A DNA stretch of 64,000 nt from Laetmonice hystrix (lineage: Eukaryota): NCBI GenBank assembly GCA_965235115.1, contig OZ249440.1:7316001-7380000 (forward strand), written 5' to 3'. Position numbers and translations under genes: made by a program. The notes beneath the pieces were generated by a model. That model was not told the origin of the DNA. It was given only the letters and a program-made list of their open reading frames with translations, and did no database searches. Positions 2,776-51,808 of the stretch are shown in pieces. Within the stretch, counting starts at the first letter, position 1; every line of letters begins with the position of its first letter.

Positions 2776-4526
2776 AGATCTCACTTAGAATACGGACTGA
2801 TCCTGACAGCACAGGATAACAGATCTCACTTAGAATACGGACTGATCCTGACAGCACAGGATAATAGATCTCACTTAGAATACGGACTGATCCTGACAGC
2901 ACAGGATAATAGATCTCACTTAGAATACGGACTGATCCTGACAGCACAGGATAATAGATCTCACTTAGAATACGGACTGATCCTGACAGCACAGGATAAT
3001 AGATCTCACTTAGAATACGGACTGATCCTGACAGCACAGGATAATAGATCTCACTTAGAATACGGCTGATCCTGACAGCACAGGATAATAGATCTCACTT
3101 AGAATACGGCTGATCCTGACAGCACAGGATAATAGATCTCACTTAGAATACGGACTGATCCTGACAGCACAGGATAATAGATCTCACTTAGAATACGGAC
3201 TGATCCTGACAGCACAGGATAATAGATCTCACTTAGAATACGGACTGATCCTGACAGCACAGGATAATAGATCTCACTTAGAATACGGACTGATCCTGAC
3301 AGCACAGGATAATAGATCTCACTTAGAATACGGACTGATCCTGACAGCACAGGATAATAGATCTCACTTAGAATACGGACTGATCCTGACAGCACAGGAT
3401 AATAGATCTCACTTAGAATACGGCTGATCCTGACAGCACAGGATAATAGATCTCACTTAGAATACGGACTGATCCTGACAGCACAGGATAATAGATCTCA
3501 CTTAGAATACGGACTGATCCTGACAGCACAGGATAATAGATCTCACTTAGAATACGGACTGATCCTGACAGCACAGGATAATAGATCTCACTTAGAATAC
3601 GGACTGATCCTGACAGCACAGGATAATAGATCTCACTTAGAATACGGACTGATCCTGACAGCACAGGATAATAGATCTCACTTAGAATACGGACTGATCC
3701 TGACAGCACAGGATAATAGATCTCACTTAGAATACGGACTGATCCTGACAGCACAGGATAATAGATCTCACTTAGAATACGGACTGATCCTGACAGCACA
3801 GGATAATAGATCTCACTTAGAATACGGACTGATCCTGACAGCACAGGATAATAGATCTCACTTAGAATACGGACTGATCCTGACAGCACAGGATAATAGA
3901 TCTCACTTAGAATACGGACTGATCCTGACAGCACAGGATAATAGATCTCACTTAGAATACGGACTGATCCTGACAGCACAGGATAATAGATCTCACTTAG
4001 AATACGGACTGATCCTGACAGCACAGGATAATAGATCTCACTTAGAATACGGACTGATCCTGACAGCACAGGATAATAGATCTCACTTAGAATACGGACT
4101 GATCCTGACAGCACAGGATAATAGATCTCACTTAGAATACGGACTGATCCTGACAGCACAGGATAATAGATCTCACTTAGAATACGGACTGATCCTGACA
4201 GCACAGGATAATAGATCTCACTTAGAATACGGCTGATCCTGACAGCACAGGATAATAGATCTCACTTAGAATACGGACTGATCCTGACAGCACAGGATAA
4301 TAGATCTCACTTAGAATACGGACTGATCCTGACAGCACAGGATAATAGATCTCACTTAGAATACGGACTGATCCTGACAGCACAGGATAATAGATCTCAC
4401 TTAGAATACGGACTGATCCTGACAGCACAGGATAATAGATCTCACTTAGAATACGGACTGATCCTGACAGCACAGGATAATAGATCTCACTTAGAATACG
4501 GACTGATCCTGACAGCACAGGATAAT
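2776..4526. repeat. Minisatellite, 45-bp unit, 39 copies, nearly homogeneous
   Basis: Unit AGATCTCACTTAGAATACGGACTGATCCTGACAGCACAGGATAAT. Units 7, 8, 15 and 33 lack the same A (39x45-4 = 1751 bp). The minus-strand LSGSVRILSEIYYPV ORFs are by-products of the repeat. Confidence 0.97.
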
Positions 4527-5863
4527 AAAGATCGGAAAGTTCGCCACCCATTACTCTCTGCCATCTGACACGCAAACCATCCACGCTCTTTTTTTTATAA
4601 CAAAAAAAAGTACAGACTCAAGCAAGCTCCAAAACATCCATTTGAAGGATTATCGCATTCCTTATATCAAAGCTCGCTCCGTTCAGGTGTAACTATATCT
4701 GAATCTCAGTTGAAAAGGACCAGAACAATTCAACATCAATTCAATACCCTTCAGACATATCTAATTACTATTTCTAAATTAGAAAAATATTTTTGAGGCA
4801 ACCCATTCTGAGCTGAGAGATAAGAGTGCGGATAGTTCCGGAAAAAATCCGCGCGGGGGTGGGGTGGGTGTGGGTGTGGGACTGAGACGGGGGTAAATAA
4901 ATTACCAGTTTCTTTATGTTGCTCACCGGGGTGTACAGCGATGATACCTGACCAATGGGGAGGGTTTTGGGTCGGAGCAAGGGGTGAGTAAGTGCACACT
5001 TTTTAGATACCTTCCTATTTCTACATTATATACTAATCCTAAATAATATTATTACTCAGCATTAAAGGTTTTGGGTGGGTTTTTTTTACAAAACTTCAGC
5101 AATTAAAAGGGCAAAACGGCGTTGCGCCTTTGATATCTTAGCGCGGATACTGATCGAGTGTTGGCTATTTTGCACTTACGCAATAGCAGAAACAACAGCA
5201 GCAAGAGCAGGTTGTGTCCATCCAGCAGTCGGTGTGAGCCTCAGTGAAGGCTCAGACAAGATTCTGTTCAGACCTCAGTTGGCTGTCACAATACCCCAAA
5301 CTGACGGCCACTGATGGGTGACAGGCGCTCAGTGTGAGTACAAGTGTCACGGAGAGTCATTCTTACAATGTAAATTTTCTATTTTATAGATCCTCTCATA
5401 GTATTTCCTGATGAAATTACCACTATCTCATTGACTATAACTTTATTTATCTGTATCTCCTTCAGTTCCTGCTGTGGCTGTACGATCACAACTTGGCCTC
5501 ACAACAACTGATCTCAGCAGGTCTACTACTGTGAGAAAACGTATCCAGAATACCATCTAGACTCTCCCTGCATGGCGCACATAACACCGTCATCTCATAT
5601 CTTAGAGCTTTTCTCAGTCGAGTTGTCAGGAATTTCAGGGTGTTTGAAGTTTCCGAGTCCCTGTGAGTTGACTTGATCACCCGCCCCACCCGGTGGTGTA
5701 ACAGTCTCCTGGGGAGGGTGGCTGAGATAACTGTCACAAGGCGGTTACCACCTATAGCTACCAACATCAATAATACAACACCCTTTGACATCTTTACCCA
5801 TACAAACGGGTAGGGTAAGGGACAATGTCTTGTCTTTAATAACAATAAATGAAATATGCATAT

Positions 5864-6193: not shown

Positions 6194-6253
6194 TGAAATA
6201 TGCATATAGATACGGGATTCTGCCTTATCGTTTTGTTTCACCTACTTAAGGTG

Positions 6254-6739: not shown

Positions 6740-7206
6740 TCATCAACGTTACAGGTGTATTAAGGTCTCAGCCTTAGCCCTGACTGACGCCACGTTACAG
6801 GTGTATGGGTTATTAAGGCCTCAGCCTCGGTCCTTACTGAGGCCGGTCATCATCAACGTTACAGGTGTATGGGCCATCACAGGTTATAAAGGCCTCAGCC
6901 TCGGCCCTGACTGAGGCCGGTCATTATCAACGTTACAGGTGTATGGGTCACCACAGGTTATAAGGCCCTCAGCCGGGTCAATACTGGGGCCGGTCATCGT
7001 CAACGTTACAGGTGTATGGGTCACCACAGGTTATAAAGGCCTCAGCCTCGGTCCTGACTGAGGCCGGTCATCATCAACGTTACAGGTGTATGGGTCACCA
7101 CAGGTTATAAGGGCCTCAGCCTCGGTCCTGACTGAGGCCGGTCATCAGCAACGTTACAGGTACATGGGTCACCACAGGTTATAAGGGCCTCAGCCCTTAC
7201 TGAGGC
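6740..7206. repeat. Minisatellite, about 74-bp unit with an internal hairpin; 5 long units preceded by 2 shorter ones
   Basis: (A)ACGTTACAGG anchors at 6745, 6792, 6855, 6929, 7002, 7076 and 7150. Long units contain GGCCTCAG-N12-CTGAGGCC or variants of it. Confidence 0.92.
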
Positions 7207-12631: not shown

Positions 12632-12988
12632 GTCTACAGTCTGGGCCCGGTGGTTTACCTTAGTCTACAGTCTGGGCCCGGTGGTTCATACCTTAGTCTA
12701 CAGTCTGGGCCCGGTGGTTCATACCTTAGTCTACAGTCTGGGTCCGGTGGTTCATACCTTAGTCTACAGTCTGGGCCCGGTGGTTCATACCTTAGTCTAC
12801 AGTCTGGGCCCGGTGGTTCATACCTTAGTCTACAGTCTGGGCCCGGTGGTTCATACCTTAGTCTACAGTCTGGGCCCGGTGGTTCATACCTTAGTCTACA
12901 GTCTGGGCCCGGTGGTTCATACCTTAGTCTACAGTCTGGGCCCGGTGGTTCATACCTTAGTCTACAGTCTGGGCCCGGTGGTTCATAC
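12632..12988. repeat. Minisatellite, 33-bp unit, 11 copies
   Basis: Unit GTCTACAGTCTGGGCCCGGTGGTTCATACCTTA; the first unit is 31 bp. It lies about 2.3 kb upstream of the Tae4-like start codon. Confidence 0.96.
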
Positions 12989-15215
12989 CCCAAGTTCTTG
13001 CTTTTAAAAGATTAGATGGAAGTCAATCAGAAATGTTACGCTATACTCTTAAGGAAGAACCTAAGTTTTCAAAAACCGGGTCATGCTGGGCAGTTTGACC
13101 TTTTTAATGACCGCCATCATCATTTGGTTTGCAGCTTTACTTGACCATAGTTTTGAATACCCAAGTTATTTCTACAAGTATCCTTTAATACATGTGGAGG
13201 ACCAAGATGTGTCTCTATATCTCCAGTCTATAAGTTGGAGGCCTGGGCTCTGGCTTTTGTCCTCGAGGCTAGCTGAAGTTTGACCCCCACTAACACGTTG
13301 TATAAATGTCAGAATGAGACGTCTATGGTAATGTAAGCCTGCTGAATATGTCTCCCCACGTGTCACACAGGTACACATACAAAATGTATTCTCATGGACC
13401 TGCCGAGATCCTGACCGCTGTGGTCGATAGGGGCAATGACCTCCAGAGTATAAAATCTCAGGGCCACCTGGCAGCCTCATGAATATTAATGAGGTATCTG
13501 AACCCCTCTGCCGCCAGGTGGCCAGAGATCTCAGTATGATTAATGATCGCGGGTAGAAAGTTTATCAACATCACAAATGGTTATCGCAGATCCTATTCTC
13601 GTTTTTGCACTCTCCCCCGATTTCCTTGTGATTACTAAAGATATCCTGCTGATAGACCATGAACGTATCGCTGCGAGTGTCTCCACAATATTCACCACCA
13701 CAATCGTAACGTCCCGCTCAACACTGAACGTATTATGAAGAAAAGGCTCGGTGAAAAAAGGCAGACATTTTCCACAAAAAGTCTCGCATTTAAAATAGAT
13801 TGAGCAAATATTCATTTTTTATATCAGATAAAAACGTGGGGTATATATACCATTATACACAGCTTCAGTCTGTGAAGGTCACATACCACAGATTTGAGGT
13901 AATTTAATGGGGGTAACTTATACTATTATAAAACCTTGGAAGCTTACAATCAAAAGACAGTTTCAATGTCACACTGCAAGGATTCAATCCGTCTGTTTAG
14001 TTATAAATTTCTCAGATTCATGACCAGGAGCAACGACTCGTTGCCAGGAGTAACGGTTCACTACTGAGTGCAGAACTTCAGAAAAAAAGGAGAAAAATTC
14101 ACGGTTTCACATATACATACACTTTCAAATACTTTCGTCGCTTATTGATATATCCTAAATAATTTTCAAGTACACTTGTTTGGACAGAAAGATGGAGCAG
14201 TATTTTTTTTATACCGACATCAGTCATAGTACCAGTTTTTCATGGGTTGGAGGGTTACAGTATCCGTTTGTAAATTTATGACACGCTTCCCCCACATGCC
14301 GCCCCATTTAGGGAGCCCCAGGCAACCCCCACCACTCACCCGTTTCCCCATTGGCCGCCTCAGGTGTCAATCAAGAGTGAAGTGGGTGTGTTCAGGGCAG
14401 GTAAGCGTGACGGGACACCATCCACGCGGCCCCGAGGTCCTGGTCCCCACACCCGTCGACACACCACTCTGACTATGGACGTATCTCCTCTACTCTACCT
14501 GGGGAACGGGATGACCAGGTGACACCATTCACTCAGGTCTATATCAGCTCCACCGTATCTGATAAGGAGTGGTCATGATGTAAGGTGTAAGGAGTGGGAG
14601 ATAAGGAGTGGTCCTGGTACCCAGCCGATACGGCACACCGACTACACGGACTAGGAGAGGTTAGAGGTGCCGACCGGCAGGTGGTGCGGGCAGTGACCCG
14701 GCCCATAGAAAGCGGGCCCCCAGCACACCCCGACACTGTGAGCTTGGCCTGATCCCAGTCCGATTGGCCATACAGCCAGTACAACCGTTATCTCTCCCAC
14801 ACACACGGCACACTCTCCATACCTCCCGGCTGATCCGAACCTCTTCACGCCGCTGGACGGATTGTTCCGCCGCCGTCGAGAACAACACTCTTCCACTTCA
14901 ATAACACTCGGAGTTTCCTGACGACCCACAGCAATCCAACCACACTCAACCGCTCTCACTACTCCTGGTCAGAACTTGATTCTATACCTTACCAAAACCT
15001 GACTTGGAGGATTGTACCCACCGGGATTCTACTGTGACAGTTCCCTCGGATCCTCACCGCCTGTAGATTAATCCCCACTGTTGAGAGAAGCAACCGCTCA
15101 CCTAAAATAATTACAGGTAATCTAATCGCCTGGGGGCAGATTAGCTGGCCGAGCGGGTGGTAATCCCCCTGGATGATTTGCCGGCTGGTGGCAGTGTTGT
15201 GAGCCTCCTGAGGGA

Positions 15216-15308
15216 GAGGAGGAGGTACTGGATTATTACAGTGGAGGAGGAGGAGGTATTGGATTATTACAGTGGAGAAGGAGCAGGAGGTGTTGGATTA
15301 TTCCAGTG
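15216..15308. repeat. Three degenerate copies of a 31-34-bp purine-rich unit just upstream of the signal-peptide exon
   Basis: GAGGAGGAGGT-N2-TGGATTATT-N2-CAGTG, with GGATTATT at 15230, 15261 and 15295. Confidence 0.8.
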
Positions 15309-15338
15309 AATGGCTGGACGTCCGGCGGTGGCTGTAGG

Positions 15339-15410
15339 ATGGTGAAGTTATACACGATGGAGGCGGTGACGGTCACCCTCATGGTGGGCCTCCTGGCCGT
15401 CAGAGCGGCG
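15339..15410 (+). CDS. Coding exon 1 of the Tae4-like gene: signal peptide MVKLYTMEAVTVTLMVGLLAVRAA
   Basis: ATG in good context (AGGATGG), a hydrophobic core AVTVTLMVGLLAV, a V-R-A cleavage-type motif, and a GTAGGT donor at 15411 in phase 0 matching the next exon. The link to exon 2 across 11.4 kb is inferred. Confidence 0.72.
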
Positions 15411-18400
15411 GTAGGTATACTGTACTACTATACATCCAAGTCAGCATGTGCATGACAAAGATAGCAATCATTAAAGCCTAGACGTTGTGAATTTTCTTTC
15501 TCACATATTTGAATCAACTTTTTAAATTCATATATATTTTAAAGTTTTCACATTCAAATTCTGCTAACCTTGAAGAGAAAATCATCGTATCTACTCAATG
15601 TCATCGGTTACCTAATTAAAATAATCGGTGTTTGACACCCACTCATACGATTAAGATACCAGCACGATCCCTCATTTCACAAATCAAGTCGGCATGAATG
15701 AACATCATGGTTTGATTTCACATCTCTTAAATGCATCGTCCCTGAGTGACAACATATAAGGCAGTTGTCAATGACTATAGTCCCATCTTGTATATAGTCT
15801 GGGTGGCTGACTTCTACCTTACAACCACTCCTGACATTGTACAAACGACGATCGTGATCCTAAGGTTCACAGCTCTCATACTTTCTCATTAAAACTCACT
15901 TTCCGACCGCCGCACTGCTAGGCCTCATAAAAACGTCTTATTTCAACTGTCAAGGAAAATCAGAAAGACTTAGATCAGGAACATTTCTCTACATTAACAA
16001 GGTAACTTGGTATGTCCCTCCCGAACAGGCGGTCTCAGTTTCTGTCTGTCTGAATACTTCTCTTTCTTTCTCTGTCTCATTCTCTCCTCAATACCTCTCT
16101 CTCTCCCTTTGAGACCATATTTTAATCGCTGAACTGTAAACTCTCATTGACGGCACAGTGATACTATTTCATCTTGTTTGCGCAAACCAAGTTCCACAGC
16201 TCCCTGTCGGTCGTGCCTGACAGTGACTCTATCCCCTGTCGTCTCACAAACATAAAGAATCACTGCACAACACATGTAGTATCTCCCAACTAGATCGTCA
16301 CTCGTTGATCCGTTCCCCACAACCTGACCTGCTTTAAGTTGCTCACACTGTTTGCTGTTGGTATCTGTTTTTATCTAAACAGCGGCCTGCCGACCAGTGC
16401 CTTCCCACAGTTTGTCCCAGGTTGAAGGGCATGGCTTATCCTTGCCCGACATGACTGTCACGTTTCCCGTTACCAGACCCGACGCCAACACAAACTCTCA
16501 GATTCCTTACACAGTAATTGGAGGAGACAATTAACCGTTGTGTTCGGACCAGACACCGACACAATCAGTGATTGACAGCTCAACTGTTCACGGTGACTCT
16601 ACCCAAGACACAAACATTAATCTTAAATTTTTTTTTTCTAAAACCTTAAATCTCTCCTCTTCCACAATGTTTTATTTTTATAAAACATGTTGACATACAA
16701 AGCCCTGGCCCGTCGTAATTAATGACTCACCAGCACGGTAAACTACCGGCAAATTAAGACTAATTAATTTGCAGTCACCTACAAACACCCAGTAGCAGTA
16801 TAGTGTACATTGTATATCAAAGACCTGGGACCTGGGAAATGAAAGGTCTCCCGTTGGTCCATCACACTCTGGGCTATATGCACACTGTAAAGAAAGCAAC
16901 AGGAAGCGTAGCCGTTTTTTTGGACAAATAAAGAATCGCACACTAAAAACTTGAGGAATCTTAATTTATGTCTATCCGAAACAAAGAGTGAGAACGTTGG
17001 ATCTGAATGGTGCGGGAACGGAACGAACGAGGGCATTGATAGTGTCGTCTGACTGTCTGACGTCACAGTTCGAGTGGCCAGTCCTGCTGTGACGTCACAC
17101 TGCCTGTTGTGATGTCAAACTCGACAATAGGAAACCGCGGAAGGGGTGGTTGGGGTAAAATAACATCTTACTATAGGAATATGTTATGAGATAATTTCTG
17201 GATGGTATGAAAGACAGACACACTCACTGATTTCACGTCGTAACCGCACAACGTGCAATGTGCGAGTTGTGGTTTTCTAGGACAGTGTGTTTTGTGTGGA
17301 ATGGTCGGGCTGTCACTACTGTCGCCTTGTACACCACTTGCCCATGGTGACACTTGCCCAGTCTGACCCCCACCAGTAATAGAGCCGTGAGTATATTAAC
17401 GCCCCAGTTCCTCCCCTGATCACCCTATGGCAACTCTTCCACCTTGGTCTCAAGACACCCTCGGAGACCATCCTGACCAAATATCGCACTGATGCCAGAC
17501 CCAGACGGCCCTGATTCCAGGTAATAGCCGACCTCAGCGATCATTTTTCTGGTCGACTGACGTCTATATGTAGGGACAATATGCTGGCCAGGGGATAATA
17601 GCTTCACAATCGTGGCCGGTTGGCCCCAAGGATATACCAGAAAAAGGTAATCCTAATGCATTTGGCCGCCTGGAATGTGACGCGCTGACACAAGTATATG
17701 GTGTCATGCAATGGGCAACTGACCATATACGGCACGGCGGCGGTGGGCGGGAGAGAGAGGGGTGTGCACGCTCCGGCGGATGACAATCGCCCATTCCGTG
17801 TCAAGTCCCCCATTATATCTCATACAGACTCCTGGCCACTGGAGTGAGAACCTGGTCTATGGATCCTGGCGGTTGCACTCACAGAATGCGTCTGGCTGTT
17901 TGTGGGTAAACGTCTTGGACACGAGGCAGCTTTGTGAGGAGTGTGGGTCGGCCTCAGTCGCAGACCTCAGTCAGGCAGTCGTCCCTCCTCGTATTTGTGC
18001 AATCTTAGCGACGTCTCGGGCAGACTTGCCACACAAAAGAAGACGGTTGACTGTTTGTGAGACTGTCGGCCACTGGTGTTGTCAGGCAGTCCATCATCTG
18101 ACAGTCGTATTTTGTCCTCGCCATGTCAACTCTTTATTCAGGTCGAGTCAGAAACCTTGCATTAAAACACGCTGGGAAAAAAACAAGATGACGGAAATGA
18201 AAAGAGCTTTCCAAACAAAACTATTTGTCTTTTTTAGGGATCCAGGATGTGAGTTATCACAAATCCTATCTGTCAATATGTGGAGTAGAGTGTGTCTCTC
18301 ACTCCTAATTGTGTTTGGCGTGAGCCCCACGTGCCTAGCCTCAAGTCACCAACCGCTGCTAACCAGAGAATGCATACAGCACGCATGCGTGCTCACTGAT

Positions 18401-24400: not shown

Positions 24401-27400
24401 TCAATGTAGCAACCGGGCTTCCTCCCACTCACACTGGGGAGATACACAGGCGAGCCAGCACGGAGCAGGGCAATGCCTCTTCACAAAGGACATAGACTAC
24501 TTTATATCTGACCTCTGAACCCAGCATCTGTGACCCTTGAACCGGGGTCAGGGTGAAGAGACAGCCCCTAGTTTTAACAATCGCTCCCGGTCAGCCGACC
24601 CCGAATGGCAAGCCACGCCACTGGGTGACACATCCATTCCGAGTTCTGTTCACTTCCGACCTTGTGACACACCTCTGTGACCTTGACGGGACCTTGACAA
24701 ACAGAGGCCGCTGGCAACAGCGTTCCCCTCACTGTACACCCTCTATTCTGGTGGCATTGGTCTTGTGACATATAATTAACAGATTCAATAGGCCCCTATA
24801 TCCGACCTTCCAGTGACCTGTGCCCCTTGCGCACGGGACACTATTTAATTCAATTGCTTCATCCCAGAACATGACCACCCTACCACACATGGCGCACTTT
24901 GGGCCGCACACTCCCATCATAGACCCCGCCCTCTACCGGTCAGGTATGTCACTAACCCATTCAGGTCGGCAGTTCATTTCTGCATGGGTATCTTTCATCC
25001 TTGATAATGGTAATATGTCTTCAGATCGCTATCACAGGTTTGTCGGAGACACTGAATTTTGATGGAGTTTCTGTTCGCCTGAGCTTACAAAAGATTCATT
25101 GTAACCTTTCCCGAGTGTCGGCGTCAGAAACCCCATGCAGGTGGCGTCAGAGCCTGTTCAAGCCGCCTAAACAGTACCGACATGAAGAGAACCATCGTGA
25201 GAAACGCTAGCCCCCACAATACACCGCCACAGATCATAGAGACCTACACCTGAAACCCCCAACCAAACACCTCCACAACACAATAACCAAACACCTCCAC
25301 AACACAATAACCAAACACCTCCACAACACAATGCGCAAACACAACACCCCATGCTTAATTATCCCTGAAAGACTTTTTCTCCAAAATCACCGGCCATGGA
25401 GACCCTTTCTACGACACAAAGTCAATCAGAGTCGATTCCCCGGCCCCGAGTGCCTTCCACAGTCAAGGGGTGAGCTGAAGCGTGGGACAGCAACCCTGAC
25501 TTGGATAATGGTGGGTTTATCTAAAAGTGAACCCGGTATAACAATCTTAACTGAATACTGGGCCCCTGAGAGCCAAGCCTCAGCAAACACGGAGAACTTC
25601 GGTCAAGCCTGAACCATTTGTCAAGGCGTACAGTGGGTTGTCTCCGTACTCGTGCCCTGTTCGTCGGGCCACCGCGCCTCGGACCACCGATCTCAACAAG
25701 GTTCCCACAATGAGAGCTCTACACGCCCTGCACTGACAAAAACTCCAGACAGTATTCACAATCACAGAAAATATTTCACATGCCATGGTTTCTTTTGTTG
25801 GTTCTATAGCTTAGCATGGCAAGTTACCATGTCATGTATCATGTCAACCCCTTGTTTCATGGTGCACAGCTACTTAAAGGGGGGATCTCCCGACTGCAGA
25901 CACCCCCCCCCCCCTCTCACCCCTTTCTCCTTCCGCTGAACCCCTAGGTATGAGGGCAAGGAGTGATCGGGAAGAGCCCCCCCCTCCCTCCCTAAGTACA
26001 GTCCTCACTCACATGCTTCTCAACAACTCTACATTCAAATCACCCTGTCAACGTTTCCGAACTTGTTGACATACTGTCGGTGTATTCAACAGCCTCACTG
26101 AACTGAACCGCCAAAGGAGCACATAATGTCAATAAAAACACTGATCCTTGAAACTTTTCCACTGCAAGACATAAAAGACAGCTGAAAAGGTATGTCACCG
26201 CCCCCCTTACTGAGGTCTGTTTGTGATGGTTTGTGGCCCCAACCGAAGGCAGATCTAGACAGGCATGCAATTACACCTTCAACTTGATTCTGGGACTAGT
26301 TCGTAAAAACTGAAGATCTTGCTTTAGCTTAAATCGTACGTTTTTACGAACTGGGTCCAGGATACTTGTTTCAACACAGAGACACCGTCACACGTAAGGT
26401 CACCGCGATAAAATCTCACCCCCCCCCCCTGATAAAATCTCGCAACTTTCTTTCTTATAAAAAAAATGACTTCATAAACCTTTCTATTAGTCAGTCATTG
26501 ACTACTCTGACGCATGCACATTGAGTTTCCATTCCTTGAGGTACTGGTTTGGGCGTTGATGACGTATGCTCTGCGAAAGGGTACTGCAATAAGGGCAGGG
26601 TTCGGTTCCCTTGAGGTGCTGCCAATTTTCTGCTTTTTGAAATATTCCCAAAGTTAACAGGGGTAATGGCGATGCTCTTGTACAGTGGAGATAAAGTCCT
26701 CTGTATCCTGAGATAGCGTCTACACCCAGGGAGGTACATGACTTTCTCCGCCTGATATTTACATGTTTTCTCTCTTGATCTACTTGCAGATGGAACTGCC
26801 CAAGTTCAGTCAGATGGTACTACTCTACCCGGGGTATTACCTTCACGGAGGGCGGTATAGAGACAAAGATATCATCTCTATGATAGGTGGTCACTTCACG
26901 TCCCACATGCACAACACGGCCTCAATCCGCATGTCGTGGGCCCTCAATAAGTACGGCGGGCGGCACGCCCTCGGCACCCAACAGGTGAACCTCTCAAAAC
27001 ATGGCAAGGACAGCTACACGGGCAAGGACGGCCAACAGTACATCTTCAGAAACACCGCCTTCGGGCCTTTTCTGGCCGAGCGCTATGGGAATCCTTTAGT
27101 TGCCAAACCTAATCAGTTGGACCACACAAAAACAATGGATCCATTCACAGGCAAGCAAGGCATTGTGCGACTGGTCAGTTACCATAAGTCTCACGCCAGT
27201 GGTCACATGGGTCTATGGGACTGCACTAACTTTATACAGAGTCGTGATTGGACGACAGAAAGTCAAATTATCTCAGTGGAGTTCTGGGAAGCACCAGGTA
27301 AGACTAATCTCTGACTTTATCATGTTTATGTAATTCGAGAAACCAGCATGAGAACCGCATCTCGCTCTCTTAGAATCGAACTACAGTTCACTAACAACAT

Positions 27401-36400: not shown

Positions 36401-37650
36401 CACAAATTGCGACACGAGATCATGCCTGTGAGTGTGAGACTTTCACTACCTGATGTCAAACAGATTCATCATGAACTCATACAAACTGACACTGAGGTTT
36501 TAGATGCTGAGACTTTACCTGGGGAGTCCTAACAGATGGGAACCCTTTAATTACCCCACCTCCCCAAGTCCACCCTCGACACCCCTGACAAGGGTTGAGA
36601 TTACACACAGAAAGAGGCGCTCTTAACCAGCATTAGCCGTGCCCGATATGGCCTGTCCGATAATGGTCAGACTGTGTGGTCAGGATGAATAGCCTGATCC
36701 CGGTGATCATCAAAGGACCGGTCATCCAGGTGGACAGGTCTGTAGTGACCATCAGGCTGGACAATGACTCCTCACTGAGGGATGAGACTGAGTGTCCACG
36801 GCCGGACGATTCCCGTGATGGATGACACTGGACACTACTTTGTCTGCTCACCGTGGTGTCTCTCAACCCCCCTCCTTCCCGTCACAGACTGACCATTGTC
36901 CAGTCGGCGTCCACTCCCTGCCATACCTGACATATAGCACCAGTATCCAGTCATATATCATCCTGGCGAGGGAAGATGCTTTCAGAGGTATCATCAGGGG
37001 TTGATTTAAATCTTAGTTTTCAGTCCAGATAAGGGCCACCAAGGTAGAGTTTGAAAACGACCAGACTACTTCTATATCAGCGGTGACTTCTCATGTCAGG
37101 TTGGATTTACTGCTCCTGTATACAGACCAGTAGAACCCGCAGGTGATCACTGTCCTGTCCAGTAGATAGGGAACGCCAGGCAATATTTTTCAGAAATTAC
37201 AGTCTGCTCCGACAGCCTCAACACCTGCCATTGGTGTACTGGTCATTAAACCCTAATATACAAACTTGTAATTTAACCGCGATCTTGATATGCCGCATAA
37301 CTTAGAAAATAACGCAAAAAGAACAAAATATGGCTTTAAAAGTTCCCTAGAAGAAAAACCCAATTGTTGTAGACCTATTCTCAGTTTACTGACGTGTATC
37401 TCTTGATTTTCTGTCACCAGATTCCTACTGTCCCCCGCCAAGTAACTCCACGGTCCCGGTGCCTCACCTGGAGAAGGCCACCTTCAGCCCGGAGAACATG
37501 GCTGGTCTCCTTCACAGTCAGCAAGTCCTGCACCAGGAACAACGTCACCACTACCGTCGTCGTCATCACGACATGAGCCGTCACCATGGCAACCCCAGTC
37601 TATCACGTCATCGAGACAGGAGGACGGAGGACCACTGGCCTGGCCGGTAG
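15339..37650 (+). CDS. Secreted Tae4-family (T6SS amidase effector 4) domain protein, dae4-like, catalytic Cys replaced by Ala; 3 coding exons, 269 aa
   Basis: join(15339..15410, 26790..27297, 37421..37650) = 72+508+230 = 810 nt. One open frame, GT-AG boundaries and matching phases (0, then 1). In-frame upstream stop at 15174-15176. The middle exon carries the Tae4 motifs NTASIRMSWALN, TGKDGQQYIFR, FTGKQGIV, SGHMGLWD and the terminal EFW. Confidence 0.8.
25261..25332. repeat. 24-bp tandem repeat, 3 copies
   Basis: AACCAAACACCTCCACAACACAAT at 25261, 25285 and 25309. Confidence 0.9.
26290..26360. mobile_element. Very short MITE (71 bp) with both terminal inverted repeats
   Basis: The left end CTGGGACTAGTTCGTAAAAAC and the reverse complement of the right end CTGGACCCAGTTCGTAAAAAC match at 18/21. 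26299-26332 matches the reverse complement of 6320-6353 at 31/34. Confidence 0.7.
26790..27297 (+). CDS. Coding exon 2: complete Tae4-family (NlpC/P60-like fold) amidase domain, 169 codons plus 1 nt
   Basis: Acceptor TTTTCTCTCTTGATCTACTTGCAG (AG 26788-26789) and donor GTAAGA at 27298. Motifs are colinear with enterobacterial Tae4 as I recall it (NACPIRMSYVLN, TGSDKKRYMFR, FAGKQGII, TGHVTLWN, C-terminal FW). Confidence 0.93.
31844..31920 (+). other. G-rich tract with strong G-quadruplex potential, in intron 2 of the Tae4-like gene
   Basis: (GGGGGGCA)n-type repeats followed by GGGGCCGGGTCAGGGCCGGGGCCGGGGTGGGGCGGG; more than ten G3+ runs with 1-3 nt loops. Confidence 0.75.
34105..34400 (+). mobile_element. 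Decayed LINE (L2/CR1-like) apurinic endonuclease fragment
   Basis: Reads NRLPPQCSSTRSFEKQLHEHLLEYVLYLPGRGQLIIVG*LHFQ, resembling the YRPP...LIIVGDFNFH segment of L2/CR1 APE domains. A downstream PTIFTG resembles PTHxxG. Contains stops. Confidence 0.45.
37421..37650 (+). CDS. Coding exon 3 of the Tae4-like gene: Cys/Pro linker and His/Arg-rich C-terminal tail
   Basis: Strong acceptor TCTTGATTTTCTGTCACCAG. Phase 1 completes GAT (Asp), then it reads SYCPPPSNSTVPVPHLEKATFSPENMAGLLHSQQVLHQEQRHHYRRRHHDMSRHHGNPSLSRHRDRRTEDHWPGR and TAG. GC-rich and codon-like against AT-rich flanks. Confidence 0.72.
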
Positions 37651-47291: not shown

Positions 47292-47448
47292 AGCAAGGGG
47301 CTGATCACTATGGCAGAGTTCCAGCTACCGATCACCATTGTTGCCAATTTAGAAAAGAAATATTGAATTGGCAACTAGGGCCTTGCAGTTGGCGAAAGGT
47401 TTGGCGCCCAGTTTTAATTTGTTCATCATCTAATCTCATTTTCACACG

Positions 47449-47927
47449 GAGGTAGCTACTACTGTCCTGTAGCCCACAGATGTGTCTATCTATGCACTGA
47501 GGTAGCTACTATTGTCCTGTAGCCCACAGATGTGTCTATCTATGCACTGAGGTAGCTACTACTGTCCTGTAGCCCACATGTGTCTATCTATGCACTGAGG
47601 TAGCTACTACTGTCCTGTAGCCCACAGATGTGTCTATCTATGCACTGAGGTAGCTACTATTGTCCTGTAGCCCACAGATCTGTCTATCTATGCACTGAGG
47701 TAGCTACTATTGTCCTGTAGCCCACAGATGTGTCTATCTATGCACTGAGGTAGCTACTACTGTCCTGTAGCCCACAGATGTGTCTATCTATGCACTGAGG
47801 TAGCTACTATTGTCCTGTAGCCCACAGATGTGTCTATCTATGCACTGAGGTAGCTACTACTGTCCTGTAGCCCACAGATGTGTCTATCTATGCACTGAGG
47901 TAGCTAATATTGTCCTGTAGCCCACAC
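47449..47927. repeat. Minisatellite, 50-bp unit, about 9.6 copies
   Basis: Unit GAGGTAGCTACTA(C/T)TGTCCTGTAGCCCACAGATGTGTCTATCTATGCACT; the third unit has a 2-nt deletion. Confidence 0.96.
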
Positions 47928-49903: not shown

Positions 49904-51808
49904 CAGAACATCATGGCTGCATACAGCTCAAACAATGATTGCCAGAACATCATGGCTGCATACAGCTCAAACACTGACTGCCAGAACATCATGGCTGCAT
50001 ACAGCTCAAATACTGACTGCCAGGACATCATGGCTGCATACAGCTCAAACAATGATTGCCAGAACATCATGGCTGCATACAGCTCAAACAATGACTGCCA
50101 GAACATCATGGCTGCATACAGCTCAAACAATGACTTCCAGAACATCATGGCTGCATACAGCTCAAACACTGACTGCCAGAACATCATGGCTGCATACAGC
50201 TCAAACACTGACTGCCAGAACATCATGGCTGCATACAGCTCAAACAATGACTGCCAGAACATCATGGCTGCATACAGCTCAAACAATGACTGCCAGAACA
50301 TCATGGCTGCATACAGCTCAAACAATGACTGCCAGAACATCATGGCTGCATACAGCTCAAACAATGACTGCCAGAACATTATAGCTGCATACAGCTCAAA
50401 CAATGACTGCCAGAACATCATGGCTGCATACAGCTCAAACAATGACTGCCAGAACATCATGGCTGCATACAGCTCAAACAATGACTGCCAGAACATTATA
50501 GCTGCATACAGCTCAAACAATGACTGCCAGAACATCATGGCTGCATACAGCTCAAACAATGACTGCCAGAACATCATGGCTGCATCCAGCCCAAACAATG
50601 ACTGCCAGAACATCATGGCTGCATACAGCTCAAACAATGATTGCCAGAACATTATAGCTGCATCCAGCTCAAACAATGACTGCCAGAACATCATGGCTGC
50701 ATACAGCTCAAACAATGATTGCCAGAACATCATGGCTGCATACAGCTCAAACAATGATTGCCAGAACATCATGGCTGCATACAGCTCAAGAAATGACTGC
50801 CAGAACATCATGGCTGCATACAGCTCAAACACTGACTGCCTGGACATCATGGCTGCATACAGCTCAAACACTGACTGCCAGGACATCATGGCTGCATACA
50901 GCTCAAACACTGACTGCCTGGACATCATGGCTGCATACAGCTCAAACAATGACTTCTAGAACATCATGGCTGCATACAGCTCAAACAATGACTGCCAGAA
51001 CATCATGGCTGCCTACAGCTCAAACAATGACTTCCAGAACATCATGGCTGCATACAGCTCAAACAATGATTGCCAGAACATCATGGCTGCATACAGCTCA
51101 AACAATGACTGCCAGAACATCATGGCTGCATACAGCTCAAACAATGACTGCCAGAACATCATGGCTGCATACAGCTCAAACACTGACTGCCTGGACATCA
51201 TGGCTGCAAACAGCTCAAACAATGATTGCCAGAACATCATGGCTGCATACAGCTCAAACAATGACTGCCAGAACATCATGGCTGCATACAGCTCAAACAC
51301 TGACTGCCTGGACATCATGGCTGCAAACAGCTCAAACAATGATTGCCAGAACATCATGGCTGCATACAGCTCAAACAATGACTGCCAGAACATCATGGCT
51401 GCATACAGCTCAAACAATGACTGCCAGAACATCATGGCTGCATACAGCTCAAACACTGACTGCCTGGACATCATGGCTGCAAACAGCTCAAACAATGATT
51501 GCCAGAACATCATGGCTGCATACAGCTCAAACAATGACTTCCAGAACATCATGGCTGCATACAGCTCAAACAATGACTTCCAGAACATCATGGCTGCATA
51601 CAGCTCAAACAATGACTGCCAGAACATCATGGCTGCAAACAGCTCAAACAATGACTGCCAGAACATCATGGCTGCATACAGCTCAAACAATGACTGCCAG
51701 AACATCATGGCTGCATACAGCTCAAAAAATGACTGCCAGAACATCATGGCTGCATACAGCTCAAACAATGACTGCCAGAACATCATGGTTGCATACAGCA
51801 ATGACTGC
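49904..51808. repeat. Minisatellite, 39-bp unit, 49 copies
   Basis: Unit CAGAACATCATGGCTGCATACAGCTCAAACAATGACTGC. No indels in 48 units (unit 49 starts at 51776 and lacks 6 nt). Unit 28 starts with TAG, breaking the QNIMAAYSSNNDC frame. Confidence 0.97.

Follow-up and report, generated by a model that had tools for sequence, protein, structure and literature searches.

We analyzed a 64,000-nucleotide stretch of Laetmonice hystrix DNA (GenBank assembly GCA_965235115.1, contig OZ249440.1, positions 7,316,001 to 7,380,000 of the forward strand; hereafter, the window) and found that it carries a gene for a Tae4 domain protein with Ala in place of the catalytic Cys. The gene very likely belongs to an old pseudo-amidase subfamily of Dae4 that is shared by lophotrochozoans. 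Dae genes serve as the textbook case of toxins from bacteria that animals have kept for killing bacteria. The assignment to a pseudo-amidase subfamily follows from the absence of Cys in all 170 relatives that cover the site, their grouping in one clade, their shared introns, purifying selection, the lack of Asp at both offsets counted off for the known triad acids, and the poor conservation of the neighboring Ser. By profile and predicted fold, the protein is a member of the Tae4 domain family (PF14113), and it stands outside the active Tae4/Dae4 amidases, enzymes that kill bacteria by cutting the D-Glu-mDAP bond, the defining Cys being absent.

The motif around the nucleophile site, NTASIRMSWALN (translation of 26913-26948, plus strand), was aligned with the solved Salmonella Tae4 structure (4hff), placing Ala on the Cys of NACPIRMS and the conserved His on the His of GHVTLW. 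Residue numbers Cys44 and His126 follow PMC3695027, after removal of a 14-residue offset counted from the 4hff alignment. A sequence-only reading of the window had reported Ala (GCC, 26919-26921) at the catalytic Cys, a retained catalytic His at 27204-27206, and a frame without stops; translation and alignment bore out all three, the frame being open across the whole of exon 2. Its numbering of Ala68 and Ser69 was reproduced when the 24 codons of a predicted exon 1 were added. A sequencing error had been judged unlikely, and rightly so: a separate record at 94% identity has the same NTAS motif and no close relative has Cys, so a base-call error is excluded as the explanation. The exons and residues discussed below are as follows.

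15339 to 15410, plus strand: exon 1 (predicted), ATG start and 24 codons, hydrophobic and signal peptide-like, with a phase-0 donor (hydropathy and donor scan)
26790 to 27297, plus strand: exon 2, the whole Tae4/Dae4 domain, 169 codons plus 1 base, with a phase-0 acceptor and a phase-1 donor (PF14113 match and fold)
26919 to 26921, plus strand: Ala68, codon GCC, where active Tae4 has its nucleophilic Cys (aligned to Salmonella Tae4 Cys44)
27204 to 27206, plus strand: His163, codon CAC, the His kept at the catalytic position (His in 158 of 168 covering rows, window included)
27210 to 27212, plus strand: Gly165, two residues after the His (His+2), the place of the triad Asp in Serratia Ssp1 (clade count)
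27222 to 27224, plus strand: Cys169, the clade-specific invariant Cys of W-D-C, putative disulfide partner of Cys197
27237 to 27239, plus strand: Gln174, His+11, the place of the triad Asp137 in Salmonella Tae4 (by residue counting, not superposition)
37421 to 37650, plus strand: exon 3 (predicted), a D-S-Y-C link, a His/Arg-rich tail, and the stop codon (motif scan)
37429 to 37431, plus strand: Cys197, in the D-S-Y-C of predicted exon 3

The exon 2 domain matched the Tae4 profile PF14113 with an E value of 6.3e-14 (52.6 bits against a cut-off of 27; profile positions 2-125 of 125). An AlphaFold2 model of this domain, built on a 51-row alignment, had a predicted local distance difference test score (pLDDT) of 92.1. 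Foldseek returned 11 matches to the predicted model under E 0.001, all of them Tae4-family structures. In the VIA wide fold search, the model matched 4jur with Z 18.4 (root mean square deviation 2.2 Å over 149 residues) and 4bi3 with Z 18.0, and the first non-Tae4 row reached only Z 7.7. As modeled, the encoded domain is a Tae4 variant of the NlpC/P60 papain-like fold.

Relatives were pooled from sets of 53, 28 (E down to 1.6e-9), and 98 sequences, giving 179 proteins plus the window protein, nine of which did not cover the nucleophile site. The rows are cluster representatives, and molluscs are over-represented. Cys was found at the nucleophile site in none of the 170 relatives; the residues there were Ser (110), Ala (46), Thr (11), and one each of Asp, Lys, and Gly, so that with the window included, 168 of 171 rows have one of the small residues Ser, Ala, or Thr. 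Among the more distant matches (P0112-P0164), 45 of 53 keep Cys. The named members are annelids (Capitella and Paralvinella), molluscs (Lottia, Patella, Haliotis, Biomphalaria, Crassostrea, Mytilus, Pecten, Solemya, Octopus, and the chiton Liolophura), a brachiopod (Lingula), a nemertean (Tubulanus), and a bryozoan (Watersipora). Named orthologues include Crassostrea LOC111135332, Mytilus LOC143072204, Biomphalaria LOC129922109, and Capitella CAPTEDRAFT_221306; Capitella, like the window protein, is of the Ala type, and Lottia and Crassostrea are of the Ser type. Capitella (64%) and Paralvinella (60%) are the closest named relatives, and the six molluscs compared were 42-48% identical. The window protein itself was not found in the Atlas. 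The Capitella homologue falls in a 57-member Atlas cluster that is all eukaryotic and mostly molluscan, and the Atlas clusters nearest to it, but outside it, are bacterial. A scan of GTDB genomes for bacterial kin with narrow clade-specific patterns gave 10 pattern matches and no relatives. An alignment of orthologs had been suggested as a check on whether Ala is fixed in a clade. Loss of Cys proved to be fixed clade-wide and is no event of a single genome, but Ala is not fixed, most members having Ser.

Motif columns were left out of both phylogenetic trees. In a quick tree of 123 rows (12 of 135 were dropped for coverage), 73 Cys-less rows grouped together with a Shimodaira-Hasegawa-like approximate likelihood ratio test (SH-aLRT) value of 93; in a careful tree of 62 hand-picked rows, 35 Cys-less rows grouped at 93/84, a node that was unstarred and whose bootstrap was unsettled. 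In the rooted tree, which bears on a possible transfer from bacteria, the root was imposed, with Cys-bearing Tae4-like proteins as the outgroup. Repeated switches among Ser, Ala, and Thr are seen on the tree, and at the codon level the site shows Thr and Ser from both of its codon families. The simplest reading would be a single loss of Cys before annelids, molluscs, brachiopods, nemerteans, and bryozoans split. These lophotrochozoan phyla separated over 500 million years ago.

Selection was estimated as the ratio of nonsynonymous to synonymous substitution rates (dN/dS) by the Nei-Gojobori method on exon 2 of 26 distinct sequences, using only those pairs whose dS lay in the range 0.05-1.5 (97 of 325). 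The median was 0.27 and the maximum 0.51 for these pairs, which are interdependent and are drawn largely from a single subclade of metagenome records with a G-A-A-A motif. The window compared with the 25 other sequences was near saturation (proportion of synonymous differences, 0.64-0.91; of nonsynonymous differences, 0.19-0.40). A dN/dS near 1, named beforehand as the mark of decay, was not seen in the pairs used.

Several groups within and around the clade were observed in passing. The subclade of metagenome records without Asn before the site (G-A-A-A) comprises L007-L018, L020-L022, L030, L031, and, in part, P0030-P0051. Seven records (P0047, P0052, P0053, P0095, P0096, P0099, and P0105) have Arg for His together with Ser for Cys, and their subclade includes the named bryozoan and nemertean. 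Several bivalves have at least two members whose gene numbers are neighbors (Dreissena LOC127871095/96, Mercenaria LOC123546857/59, and Sinanodonta ACJMK2_006273/77), which suggests local duplication. A second Tae4-like group (P0113, P0118, P0139, P0281-P0285, and P0115) adjoins the clade on both trees; it has a YPG...GG N-terminal motif and seems to end where exon 2 ends. Asp stands at the Cys site and Ser at that of the His in P0113, P0118, and P0139, and P0115 keeps Cys and has Asp for His; given the shared motif and end point, these proteins may be animal paralogues with further or separate losses of catalysis. P0145, within the Cys-bearing group, has Ser at the Cys site, apparently an independent loss. 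P0156, P0157, and P0159 are Cys-bearing Tae4 proteins; the latter two have signal peptide-like starts and Cys-rich N-terminal repeats and are probably eukaryotic active Dae4s.

The locus is part of an animal assembly of 627 Mb in 35 contigs, where it lies on contig C5, and has predicted spliceosomal introns. Scanning window positions 1-26790 gave four candidates for exon 1, of which the one at 15339-15410 was chosen because its end, just before an E-L-P-K-F motif, matches the leaders of relatives. Alternative candidates near 6200, 19952, and 22267, and another near 18278 from a separate scan, fitted those leaders less well and were set aside. A purine-rich unit of 31-34 bp occurs in three copies at 15212-15309, the last of them stopping some 30 bases short of the predicted start codon. 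Thirty-two related loci were retrieved, and the 28 with a complete match were examined, their junctions being read by eye. The frame is open in all 28; a GT donor occupies the same phase-1 position in 27, and the remaining locus reads directly into D-S-N-C, the spliced form. Spliced full-length relatives are also present in sequence collections, and D-S/T-x-C occurs in 72 of the 72 relatives that extend into exon 3. The testable hallmarks of a Dae gene were found, in that the gene lies in an animal genome, contains introns, and is under purifying selection. Searches of the L. hystrix genome with the window protein, the Pfam profile, a Cys-bearing homologue, and a distant Cys-less homologue, all run exon-wise and giving lower bounds, returned only this locus.

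The predicted product has 269 amino acids encoded by three exons and contains only two Cys residues, at 169 and 197. Secretion would be expected from the signal peptide-like sequence of predicted exon 1 and from the N termini of relatives, which were hydrophobic in 61 of 65 full-length proteins by a crude hydropathy measure. Its predicted C-terminal tail is 32% Lys, Arg, and His (median among relatives, 26%). Cys occupies the Cys169 position in 99% of 168 clade rows, whereas 82% of 45 Cys-bearing rows have Gly there. In a model of the full-length Capitella protein, confidence is high as far as roughly the second Cys, after which pLDDT falls to 45-64; this pattern fits a putative Cys169-Cys197 disulfide that would tether the start of a probably disordered basic tail.

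Comparison with characterized enzymes bears on whether catalysis has been lost. PMC3695027 reports that Cys44, His126, and Asp137 of Salmonella Tae4 are each needed for toxicity and that changing Cys to Ala abolishes activity. PMC3852654 places the triad acid of Serratia Ssp1 at Asp135 (His+2) and reports that the same change abolishes Ssp1 and Ssp2 activity with the fold unchanged. Triad offsets in the clade were obtained by counting rather than superposition, for the 160 of 179 proteins with a locatable His motif. Asp was found at His+2 in 0 of these 160 rows, which have Ala, Gly, or Val instead, compared with 27 of 40 Cys-bearing rows. At His+11, the clade has Gln (115), Glu (32), and no Asp. 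Asp at His+14 is conserved (154 of 160 rows), and the His may therefore still be oriented. The sequence-only reading had offered the adjacent Ser as a less likely alternative nucleophile, and conservation refutes this: Ser fills the Ser69 column in no more than 26 of 171 rows, and in 11 of the 47 Ala rows neither flanking residue is Ser or Thr. Its central proposal of a pseudo-amidase is well supported, the Cys loss being clade-wide under purifying selection and Asp missing at both counted triad-acid offsets. Judged from these residues, it is highly probable that this protein has lost peptidoglycan hydrolysis, and Pfam-based annotation probably errs in calling these genes antibacterial amidases.

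The T6SS (type VI secretion system) amidase effectors Tae4, Ssp1, and Ssp2 (PF14113; 4jur, 4hff, 4hfk, 4bi3, and 6ijf) share the fold of the window protein, as well as the R-x-S-x-x-x-N helix, the G-I strand, and the G-H-x-x-L-W motif. Unlike them, the window protein lacks the catalytic Cys and Asp at His+2 and His+11, and has a changed Arg-Val pair in the cleft; it also has a predicted signal peptide, a gene with introns, two additional Cys, and a tail that is basic; neither an immunity gene nor a secretion apparatus is expected for it. Another counterpart is nvDae4 of Nematostella vectensis, likewise an animal, Tae4-derived protein, and secreted, as is predicted for the window protein. According to Margolis 2021 (10.1101/2021.05.13.443009; PMC8713801), nvDae4 has retained the Cys, cleaves peptidoglycan, and is lethal to Bacillus, and a C63A mutant does neither. 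The same study states that only one of the two Nematostella tae4 homologues has the catalytic Cys, the other being left unstudied, and that both are induced by cyclic GMP-AMP (cGAMP) via NF-kB; the supplement (PMC8713801) gives a log2 fold change of 8.3 for Dae4-like (LOC5507684). The sequence-only reading knew of no catalytically dead Dae4, but a Cys-less Nematostella tae4 homologue had already been mentioned in print. Read by eye, a Nematostella Dae4-like probe has G-H-V-D-L-Y-D-G, as in Cys-bearing Tae4s, and lacks the W-D-C of the clade; its accession also sits next to the one for nvDae4. For these reasons, its Cys loss was probably separate from the lophotrochozoan one, and convergent.

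Chou 2015 is said to cover mollusc and annelid dae genes and may already show the missing Cys. Margolis 2021 cites Chou 2015 on the missing Cys. A tick Dae2 preprint (10.1101/2020.04.10.036376) describes Dae enzymes as retaining activity. No account of a lophotrochozoan Cys-less or pseudo-amidase Dae4 clade was found in the literature searched, which most subscription papers lay outside. The novelty is the breadth and age of the Cys-less clade, a Cys-less tae4 homologue as such having been mentioned for Nematostella.

The closest functional parallel is bacterial. RipD of Mycobacterium tuberculosis (Rv1566c) is described in PMC12067865 as non-catalytic and peptidoglycan binding; it belongs to the same superfamily, has Ala at the Cys site, and has a low-complexity C-terminal tail. 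It differs in being bacterial, in belonging to another NlpC/P60 family, and in having also lost the His, and it was absent among the fold-search rows shown by Foldseek and VIA. Of the proteins compared, RipD is the one that the window protein most likely resembles in its mode of action. A further case of an amidase turned binder is that of the non-catalytic peptidoglycan recognition proteins (PGRPs). They offer an analogy of logic only, having an unrelated zinc-amidase fold and no sequence or structural link to this protein.

We favor, at a little short of an even chance, a secreted and non-catalytic extracellular binder of the bacterial cell wall that would recognize, trap, or clump bacteria and would not act as a toxin; that it binds peptidoglycan has about an even chance. 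In this scheme, Cys would have been lost once, before the five phyla split, and the protein kept as a non-enzyme. Small residues at the nucleophile site and a mostly kept His would leave an open cleft that could hold a peptide stem, the cationic His/Arg-rich tail could stick to anionic bacterial surfaces or mucus, and the putative Cys169-Cys197 disulfide would tie down the start of that tail. A dead Dae4 can belong to an immune program, because the Cys-less Nematostella paralogue is cGAMP-induced via NF-kB.

Several points weigh against the cell-wall binder. In the clade, His/Arg-Pro/Asn replaces the Arg-Val pair of the Tae4 cleft lining (Arg in 91% and Val in 87% of 45 Cys-bearing rows), and the clade has invariant residues of its own (YPGY..GG, H59, D74-S75, G92-P93, R127, and E164, in exon 2 numbering). 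The changed cleft and these invariants indicate a remodeled surface that may serve another ligand. Strong and apparently low-copy conservation for this long is unlike fast-evolving immune receptors. The His itself has become Arg in seven rows, including Watersipora and Tubulanus, residual catalysis may persist in the Ser members (110 of 170 relatives, mostly with His), and only 1 of the 97 dN/dS pairs involves the window. By count on the 4hff alignment, the Val of the Arg-Val pair is Val80 of Tae4, which touches the inhibitor Tai4 (PMC3695027).

These same features lend themselves to a second explanation, possible but doubtful, in which the dead amidase was co-opted outside immunity, its cleft binding a host peptide, glycan, or matrix protein and its tail acting in a mucus, tube, shell, or cuticle matrix. 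The altered cleft residues and clade-specific invariant set would fit such a role, as would steady conservation across five phyla, the basic low-complexity tail, and the single locus found in this genome (a lower bound). However, the literature searched held no expression or proteomic support for it and mentioned none of six accessions, and the RipD and Nematostella parallels favor wall binding and immunity.

It is improbable that the protein is still an enzyme, whether a Ser-His hydrolase in the Ser members or one using His and water or another nucleophile, perhaps on a new substrate. Ser occurs together with His in 93 of 171 rows, and Gln or Glu at His+11 and the near-invariant Asp at His+14 could orient the His. 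Yet Ala occupies the site in 47 of 171 rows, this gene included, with the flanking positions and Ser69 column as described above, and Arg replaces His in the seven Ser rows already named; moreover, the repeated interchange of Ser, Ala, and Thr is what would be expected of a packing site rather than a nucleophile. Very improbable is a decoy or regulator, whether a binder of Tai4-type inhibitors from bacteria or a modulator of some active Dae4. Contact between Tai4 and the catalytic His (PMC3695027) would explain a His kept without Cys, and Cys-to-Ala Ssp proteins still bind their immunity proteins (PMC3852654), but the genome searches above found no Cys-bearing paralogue, and Tai4 proteins are periplasmic and hard to reach. 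A decaying pseudogene, private allele, or assembly error is most unlikely in view of the clade-wide fixation, 28 of 28 open frames, dN/dS well below 1, and spliced full-length relatives, and at the family level the sequences exclude decay and error.

Elsewhere in the window, long and nearly perfect tandem arrays occupy 2776-4527 (45 bp x 39, 99% matches) and 49904-51799 (39 bp x 48.6, 94%). These two arrays yield the longest open reading frames (ORFs) of the window, on both strands, with weak repeat-driven Pfam matches only. Smaller arrays lie at 6808-7195, 12632-12989, and 47445-47926. No other Pfam-recognized gene was found at E 0.001 in 52 further ORFs of the 96 listed in the window, and none of 9 other ORFs tested gave a match above cut-off outside tandem repeats.

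The Ala substitution is ordinary for its clade, and it is the clade itself, a disarmed and uncharacterized T6SS effector, that merits attention. Oysters, mussels, snails, octopus, and annelids all have members of this large animal Dae4 clade, which is conserved in five phyla although its nucleophile is gone; that an effector acquired by transfer has been kept for a long time therefore does not by itself show that it is still toxic. We put forward tentatively that a bacterial weapon was taken up by an early animal, disarmed before the five phyla split, and kept as an unrecognized, lophotrochozoan-wide pattern-recognition protein for peptidoglycan. If the protein does not bind peptidoglycan, it would represent a fold gained by horizontal transfer and conserved in an entirely new role. 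If it does, it would be a new class of invertebrate pattern-recognition protein, and, together with the separate Nematostella loss, conversion from toxin to sensor would be a repeated fate of domesticated T6SS effectors.

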